A stretch of DNA of 64,000 nt, taken from Escherichia coli. GTDB lineage: Bacteria; Pseudomonadota; Gammaproteobacteria; Enterobacterales; Enterobacteriaceae. The notes beneath the pieces were generated by a model. It made no database searches. It was not told the origin of the DNA and worked only from the letters and a program-made list of their open reading frames with translations. The stretch lies in assembly GCF_009931435.1 (NCBI RefSeq), contig NZ_CP043414.1; one strand, given 5' to 3'. Each line of letters begins with the position of its first letter. Position 1 is the stretch's first letter. Shown here in pieces: positions 33,179 to 33,442 of this stretch. A program made the position numbers and the translations under genes.

Positions 33179-33286
33179 TGCCTGATGCGACGCATGCGCG
33201 TCCTGTCATGCCTCCGGGCATTGCGCATATGCGCATCTGGCGATTTCCGTCGCTTACCCTAAATCCGCCATCAACACCTTTGATTT
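33179..33286. repeat. Degenerate copy of the argA 3' end plus its 3' flank (copy 1 of an imperfect direct repeat)
   Basis: About 105 bp aligning at roughly 85 percent identity with 33338-33442; begins with REP-like cctgatgcgacgc. Confidence 0.6.
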
Positions 33287-33287
33287 G

Positions 33288-33324
33288 ATGTAGGTCGGAT
33301 AAGGCGTTCACGCCGCATCCGACG
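33288..33324. repeat. REP-like palindromic unit
   Basis: gtaggtcggataaggcgttcacgccgcatccgac, the typical REP palindrome shape. Confidence 0.6.
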
Positions 33325-33337
33325 ATGAGCGTCAATA

Positions 33338-33442
33338 CCTGATGCGATGCTAGCGTGTTTATCATGCCTCCAGGCATTGCGCATGTCGCATCTGGCGATT
33401 TCCACCACTTACCCCAAATCCGCCATCAACACTTTGGATTTA
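33338..33442. repeat. Copy 2 of the direct repeat, overlapping the last ~11 codons of argA
   Basis: Pairs with 33179-33286; includes the argA C-terminal coding sequence KVLMADLG-stop. Confidence 0.6.

Follow-up and report, generated by a model that had tools for sequence, protein, structure and literature searches.

A BIME-associated duplication of the argA 3' end in the recD-argA spacer of Escherichia coli

The structures closest to the one described here are the BIME-2 and atypical BIME arrays (Bachellier, Gilson, Hofnung; Ton-Hoang et al. 2012, PMC3333891), which like our locus have alternating inverse y and z REPs, a short S linker and varying linkers, and which are extragenic, lie between convergent genes and differ between strains in the number of units at one locus. 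The number of tandem BIMEs is known to vary between strains, and TnpA_REP has been found in vitro to cut C|T sites at the feet of REPs, in linkers and at considerable distance (Ton-Hoang et al. 2012, PMC3333891). The z1 and z2 REPs contain the site TGCC|TGAT, which is absent in the y REPs (Ton-Hoang et al. 2012, PMC3333891). It has been proposed that distant cleavage lets a BIME unit 'sequester' fragments of flanking genes, with codA-cynR cited as an example (Ton-Hoang et al. 2012, PMC3333891, Supplementary Figure S7); going by the description of these BIMEs in that paper, gene sequence is caught between REPs there, as in our locus. REPINs mobilised by RAYTs (Bertels & Rainey 2011, PMC3116915) are a further counterpart in that the pair y-S-z (33290-33371) is a REP doublet in inverted arrangement and has the size proposed for the mobile unit.

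The locus presented here is the spacer between recD and argA in a stretch of 64,000 nucleotides from E. coli (contig NZ_CP043414.1), hereafter called the window. It is a new example of a known BIME polymorphism and a minor structural variant, present in about 2% of E. coli genomes. Unlike the units of BIME-2 arrays, the unit in the window takes in 33 nt of the adjacent gene's coding sequence and has one of its REPs reduced to a head remnant, and the period is 155-157 bp compared with about 93 bp in an array at the same site in E. whittamii. It also differs from the codA-cynR BIMEs, as far as their description goes, because what was captured is a second copy, with the gene left intact. Flanking duplications of tens of bases are not described for REPIN insertion, and no donor copy was found for the window.

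The two genes are convergent and the spacer comprises 237 bp (33172-33408). E. coli 2013C-4282 is 100% identical to the window at this locus, and the RefSeq annotation of that strain names the genes recD and argA. The parts of the spacer are listed in Table 1. Taken together they can be read as z – X – [y – S – z] – X – argA, in which X consists of a linker, a y-type REP remnant, 12 nt and 33 nt of argA (the last 11 codons). The stems begin 8 nt beyond the recD stop and 12 nt beyond the argA stop. Just past the second copy, within the argA coding region, there is also a 15-nt inverted repeat (33435-33449 and 33494-33508, 44 nt apart, 87% complementary), which is probably due to chance.

Table 1. 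Positions of the genes and of the spacer elements in the window
Feature	Position	Strand	Description and basis
recD	31345-33171	+	608 codons, stop TAA at 33169-33171; ORF list and RefSeq annotation of strain 2013C-4282
argA	33409-34740	-	443 codons, GTG start, stop at 33409-33411; the last 11 codons (33409-33441) are the duplicated part
Copy 1 (unit A1)	33173-33286		Local alignment to copy 2 and repeat search
z-type REP-like palindrome, copy 1	33180-33215	+	GCCTGATGCG...CATGCCTCC; 3 mismatches to the z-type consensus pattern, 0 expected by chance
Linker and y-type REP head remnant, copy 1	33216-33241	+	…CGCATCTGGC, then GATTTCC…
12-nt spacer, copy 1 version	33242-33253		GATTTCCGTCGC; precedes the argA stop in all alleles; allele alignment
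argA 3'-end relic	33254-33286	-	Stop and 10 codons, 30/33 identical to 33409-33441; translation
Filler GAT at the illegitimate joint	33287-33289		3 nt; TCC in the second long form
Canonical y-type REP, GTAG foot on the + strand	33290-33323	+	Inverted repeat; 100% matches at unrelated loci in other E. coli genomes
BIME S (head-to-head) linker	33324-33336		GATGAGCGTCAAT, 13 nt
Copy 2 (unit A2)	33330-33441		Continues into functional argA; local alignment
z-type REP-like palindrome, copy 2	33337-33371	+	Forms a y-S-z BIME pair with 33290-33336
Copy 2 linker and y-head remnant (33372-33396) with 12-nt spacer (33397-33408)	33372-33408
17-nt identical stretch	33232-33248 and 33387-33403		CGCATCTGGCGATTTCC; crossover interval of the CS18F collapse

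The initial annotation described an imperfect direct duplication of about 105 bp, comprising the argA 3' end and its flank, with a REP-like palindrome between the copies. This description stands, and the positions given for the three parts (33179-33286, 33288-33324 and 33338-33442) are only a few bases off those found here. A local alignment of 33150-33300 with 33301-33480 shows the copies to be identical at 95 of 114 columns (83.3%), with 2 gap columns and a score of 129, compared with 15.9±2.3 and a maximum of 26 in 500 shuffles. An independent repeat search recovered the duplication as three ungapped pieces spaced 155-157 nt: 55 nt at 89% (33232-33286 and 33387-33441), 23 nt at 96% (33206-33228 and 33362-33384) and 34 nt at 74%.

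Because both copies open with a REP-like palindrome, family likeness could inflate the identity, and the alignment was therefore split into the REP and the rest. The z-REP portion is identical at 28 of 36 positions (78%), and the locus-specific remainder (33216-33286 and 33372-33441) at 62 of 71 (87%), so that the duplication also holds when measured against the likeness of unrelated REP and BIME sequences that the initial annotation had named as the test. The z-type REPs that open both copies belong to a kind that resemble each other genome-wide, which speaks for mere REP or BIME family likeness with no duplication at all, but this reading is virtually excluded by 71 nt of non-REP sequence at 87%, 33 nt of argA among them. 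It is further contradicted by the single-copy alleles, which hold exactly one unit, and by the probes specific to each copy: a probe from the interior of either copy found exactly one place per genome in the genomes carrying it, which means that the copies are not dispersed repeats. The securely duplicated unique segment comprises these approximately 71 bp (33216-33286 and 33372-33441).

Copy 1 ends with TTACCCTAAATCCGCCATCAACACCTTTGATTT, where the minus strand reads the last 10 residues of ArgA followed by a stop. The argA-like C-terminal peptide that had been noticed in an upstream shadow ORF is thus present, in a minus-strand frame ending with the ArgA C-terminus, but with just 17 codons from stop to stop this frame is a relic rather than a gene. 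The arrangement is not a simple head-to-tail tandem duplication (A-A or AB-AB) but has the form A-B-A, with 43 bp of REP and linker occurring once between the copies. Nor does it resemble the target-site duplication of a transposon, with short exact repeats of 2-14 bp, because its repeats measure 71-114 bp and share 83-87% identity.

The spacer was compared across 5,426 complete E. coli genomes, a comparison that the initial annotation had called for, and it proved to be an indel polymorphism of 237 or 234 bp versus 81 or 61 bp. The length classes are 61 bp (K-12, BL21, O157:H7 and S88), 81 bp and the long spacers of 237 or 234 bp. Including one spacer of 82 bp in E. coli and an array of three units in E. 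whittamii, the number of units varies at this locus. A probe spanning the joint (33255-33352) was found in 130 of the 5,426 genomes (2.4%), once in each and never twice. The window type, at an identity of at least 99%, is carried by 97 genomes. A second long form with a spacer of 234 bp occurs in 33 genomes, including isolates with ETEC in their names (ETEC-2265) and one O178:H19 isolate.

The second long form is about 10-15% diverged from the window form and differs from it by 15-18% within the units, far above the difference in the flanking genes, and its argA relic has frameshifts. Its parts come in the same order, its y REP is identical and its joint lies within 1 nt of that in the window (…CACTTTGATTTTCC|GTAGG versus …CACCTTTGATTTGAT|GTAGG). 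Both long forms also lack the same G of TTTGGATTT, and these four agreements point to a single origin. In the unit body there are 4 sites that group the two copies within an allele and 0 that group them by position; these 4 sites suggest that the copies of one allele have been partly homogenised by exchange. No single-copy allele of the type of the second form was found among the complete genomes. The long spacer is a BIME-associated duplication that took in the tail of argA; it is derived, fairly old and low in frequency (2.4%).

The central REP, GTAGGTCGGATAAGGCGTTCACGCCGCATCCGAC, has a GTAG foot and an imperfect GC-rich palindrome of about 35 nt, with stems at 33294-33307 and 33310-33323 whose 14-nt arms are 86% complementary. 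This confirms the REP between the copies as a true one, at slightly shifted positions. It is the sole copy in the window within 3 mismatches, while a junction probe containing it matched a median of 8 places per genome (megablast), and the REP itself is found at 100% identity at unrelated loci in other E. coli genomes; it is thus a dispersed, extragenic element. The REPs of the two copies are called z-type, and the central one y-type, because the heads of the former hold TGCC|TGAT. The z head GCCTGATGCG with this site is exact in copy 1 and reads TACC|TGAT in copy 2. In both window copies the z foot is degenerate (CCTCC, that is, GGAG for GTAG on the other strand), whereas Escherichia sp. MOD1-EC7003 and E. 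whittamii keep CCTAC.

The S linker in the window is identical at 11 of 13 positions to the S linker of E. whittamii at the same locus, GATGAGTGCCAAT, and that of the second long form at 12 of 13. Owing to this identity, the left edge of copy 2 is a true BIME S linker and not a copy of the flank of recD, which is also what limits the secure duplication to X. The order of y in the forward orientation, S linker and z in the inverse orientation gives alternating REPs with a recognisable linker, as in a BIME, and 33289-33351 resembles other BIMEs at 84-86%, for example one downstream of mutT at about 86%. The unit tail …CGCATCTGGC is identified as the remnant of a y REP head by the full y REP at the same position in E. 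whittamii and in E. coli SCPM-O-B-8794, and with this identification the spacer is BIME material, a mosaic of REPs, from end to end, the flank in each copy comprising a z REP and a y head remnant.

An Rfam scan gave sub-threshold matches to naRNA4, a BIME model, and to no other RNA family. The model (RF02564, REP325) matches 33293-33368 end to end with 54.6 bits and E = 1e-8, under its gathering score of 59.5. Both strands match at 33293-33368 (54.6 and 35.7 bits), and there is a weaker match at 33158-33212. It seems that any generic y-S-z pair of a BIME is picked up by this model, and sub-threshold matches at other places are therefore likely to represent BIMEs rather than RNA genes; at this locus too the match is to a generic BIME unit, with no evidence of a gene for a nucleoid-associated RNA.

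The identity of the S linker bears on one possible origin of the long spacer, in which the whole spacer and 33 nt of argA would have been duplicated in tandem at a microhomology and a REP would then have been inserted independently, exactly at the joint of the two A units. The alignment of the copies reaches 33173 and 33330, 2 nt past the recD stop, and the three nucleotides ACG stand after both breakpoints (33172-33174 and 33442-33444), both of which speak for a plain duplication. However, the linker of the second form is identical at 12 of 13 positions to the S linker of E. whittamii and at only about 6 of 13 to its own recD flank, which makes the left edge of the alignment a matter of linker likeness, and the second event would have to strike precisely the same nucleotide. 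We consider this origin rather improbable.

One scan of species-representative genomes with a degenerate pattern for the ArgA C-terminus gave five loci. In both E. albertii and Escherichia sp. MOD1-EC7003 the spacer holds just one unit like those of the window, about 81 bp long, and with one copy in these species the duplication is to be regarded as derived. In E. coli SCPM-O-B-8794 the order is z, linker (s), full y REP, 12 nt and argA stop. The spacer of E. whittamii holds three tandem z-s-y-S units, with the last y REP finishing 12 nt from the argA stop, and in both this species and SCPM-O-B-8794 the full y REP at that distance ends in ...CGCATCCGGC/GAC. The units of E. whittamii, which fill the same spacer, are near-identical and about 93 bp each, composed of z, GGWGTGCTGC, y and GATGAGTGCCAAT. 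This three-unit array marks the recD-argA site as a hotspot of BIME expansion across the genus. The ancestral layout would be that of the single-copy spacers of E. albertii and Escherichia sp. MOD1-EC7003, running from the recD stop through a z REP, a linker, a y REP (or the head remnant of one) and 12 nt to the argA stop. A full y REP beside argA as in SCPM-O-B-8794 was not found among the complete E. coli genomes. The common 61-bp allele (K-12, BL21 and S88) corresponds to the 81-bp unit with 20 bp missing, so that the z REP lacks its 3' half; the z head (GCCGGATGCGACG) is left to pair with the remnant of the y head (…GTCGCATCCGGC), and together they make a single long hairpin.

The genes on both sides of the long spacer in the window are diverged. 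The end of recD (32650-33079, within its last 500 bp or so) and a block from argA to amiC (33544 to about 36100) are 4-5% different from K-12, S88, the O178:H19 isolate, CS18F and strain 104. The patch between them is shared, as the window and strain 104 agree throughout 33096-33477, with a single difference at 33478 and then none until 33544; these approximately 450 bp (33096-33543), which contain the long spacer, are ordinary E. coli sequence. The argA of the window is found at an identity of at least 99% in 18 of the 5,426 genomes, the next best reaching at most 95.9%, and an ordinary argA accompanies the long allele in 79 of its 97 genomes. The long spacer is thus carried in at least three flanking haplotypes. 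The mosaic flanks themselves look as if DNA of a divergent Escherichia lineage had been imported, with the structurally different spacer either passed over or patched afterwards. Further downstream in the window, three tandem genes for tRNA-Met (CAT) lie on the minus strand at 41789-42085 with a period of 110 nt, forming a three-copy direct repeat (41788-42117). In K-12 this triplet adjoins amiC, and in the window it is separated from amiC by about 5.5 kb of PRD-domain, PTS, MalY/PatB and KpsF/GutQ genes, which are also present downstream of amiC in S88 and CS18F.

A link between the divergent argA-amiC block and the duplication was rejected, because 18 genomes share the block, 97 share the spacer and the patch is ordinary. 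This removes the main support for an import of the long spacer by homology-facilitated illegitimate recombination, in which a donor with y-S-z-X-argA… would have recombined by a homologous crossover inside argA while its other end was joined 33 nt inside the argA of the recipient, so that the spacer and argA tail of the recipient were left as copy 1. The 4-5% divergence of the block from other E. coli had suggested such an import, and so had the finding that the copies stand as far apart from each other (79-83% identity) as they do from E. albertii (77-81%). The relic and the live argA tail moreover differ at three sites, all synonymous if they are substitutions (TCA/TCC, AAG/AAA and TTA/TTG), as if both had evolved in functional genes. 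That argument for two functional ancestors is weakened by the second long form, in which the same G is missing; the comparison suggests that a shared deletion and a compensating insertion account for two of the 'synonymous' changes. Nor did any of the five species retrieved have a donor with y-S-z-X beside argA, and import is distinctly improbable.

The repeat can also be lost. The probe for copy 1 matched one genome more than the probe for copy 2, that of CS18F, in which the spacer is 82 bp and has its left part from copy 1 and its right part from copy 2. CS18F shares the accessions of its RecB, RecD and ArgA proteins with the long-allele strains 104 and APEC E12049, and compared with strain 104 it has 0 substitutions over approximately 15.8 kb and one deletion of 155 bp, the ends of which fall in the 17-mer CGCATCTGGCGATTTCC common to both copies. 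A deletion on an otherwise identical background shows that the repeat can collapse by homologous recombination between its copies; the sole alternative seen is a collapse or error in the assembly, which could in principle account for it. Copy-specific probes for a single-copy parent of either long form returned the long-allele genomes and CS18F, itself a derivative. Of the suggestion in the initial annotation that the locus bears the footprint of a REP-mediated duplication or of a past insertion and excision, the indel polymorphism and the excision are supported, the latter by the 155-bp collapse in CS18F, whereas the REP would be no more than a possible mediator.

Every route to the long spacer requires one illegitimate joint, which is separated from the y REP and its GTAG foot by 3 nt. 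The explanation that we favour, with a confidence only a little better than even, is a single rearrangement of the BIME array, in one lineage of E. coli, that extended too far and into argA, after which the product was homogenised, moved between backgrounds and in one case collapsed. The rearrangement would have run 33 nt past the edge of the array, and an illegitimate joint with 3 nt of filler would have fused this point inside argA to a y REP at its GTAG foot, giving z – X – [y – S – z] – X – argA. The gene stays intact because it has its own 3' end in the second copy. This could have come about by a tandem duplication of y-S-z-X followed by a deletion between z REPs, or by two template switches in one replication event, and the maker of the joint may be TnpA_REP (RAYT) cleaving at a distance or a template switch in replication. 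The overshoot is favoured because the site hosts tandem arrays, as in E. whittamii, and because y-S-z is a standard module. Against it stands the need for two template switches or for a duplication with a z/z deletion. Intermediates in the form of a two-unit array without the argA relic, or of an X-X tandem without y-S-z, were found in none of the complete E. coli genomes; judging from the ranking of matches, at most a handful are possible.

A mobile REP doublet offers another origin. Here a REPIN-like y-S-z unit (33290-33371) would have entered a single-copy spacer at breaks staggered by 71 bp, and the filling in of these breaks would have produced the flanking duplication of 71 bp; the two cuts may have been made by TnpA_REP, one at the foot of the z REP already in place and the other at a distant C|T within argA. 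The spacer can be parsed exactly as z – X – [y-S-z] – X, y-S-z fits the naRNA4 model of a BIME end to end, and the z REP of copy 2 is less like that of copy 1 (78%) than the X of copy 2 is like the X of copy 1 (87%). Cleavage at the feet of iREPs and at distant C|T sites has been obtained with TnpA_REP in vitro (Ton-Hoang et al. 2012, PMC3333891). In the second long form, however, the two z REPs are approximately 92-94% identical (hand count) and look like copies of each other, and no donor locus with a near-identical module was seen, the best reaching 84-86%. To our knowledge, target duplications are not known for HUH/Y1 enzymes, and 71 bp is far beyond any staggered cut that we know of, which also counts against such an insertion. 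An origin by insertion of a doublet is therefore unlikely.

Returning to the overshoot of an array, the structure in the window fits in outline the idea that BIME units sequester pieces of flanking genes. It is tentatively possible, although doubtful, that the locus is a natural and datable in vivo footprint of TnpA_REP (RAYT), with distal cleavage in argA and 33 nt copied along. When the joint was compared with the C|T rules of TnpA_REP and with Model B of Ton-Hoang et al., there was no simple fit on both sides. In the examined parts of the window no tnpA_REP gene was seen.

REPs have roles in the stabilisation of mRNA 3' ends and in the binding of gyrase and HU, and possibly affect the termination of translation when they are near a stop codon; those within about 15 nt of a stop codon are reported to cause ribosome stalling and tmRNA tagging. 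The 3' regions of both transcripts fold into structures more stable than any of 200 shuffles (z = -3.8 and -3.6). A scan for promoters and terminators found no promoter consensus, and no intrinsic terminator with a GC-rich hairpin and a run of T on either strand of 33000-33600. The spacer would have no role beyond that of any REP or BIME at the 3' ends of convergent genes, which is to place stable stem-loops in both 3' UTRs. No protein is changed, and there is no sign of a new function.

In practice, the locus is a hotspot for an indel of 155 bp beside argA and recD that may confuse alignment, the annotation of gene ends (through the ArgA-like mini-ORF) and the inference of recombination tracts. 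As far as we know, the mechanism by which REPs and BIMEs spread and change in copy number in vivo is still unsolved, and we know of no in vivo assay for the rates at which BIME units are gained, converted and lost. A BIME unit with a recognisable piece of the neighbouring gene pins one illegitimate joint to within a few bases, and the argA piece serves as a marker that separates true duplication from the family likeness of REPs. What the locus adds is a single event known in two diverged versions, signs that the copies have exchanged sequence, and a clean case of loss by recombination on a background otherwise identical over 15.8 kb. If the reading as a TnpA_REP footprint is true, it would provide a tractable natural system for studying the rates of gain, conversion and loss of BIME units.
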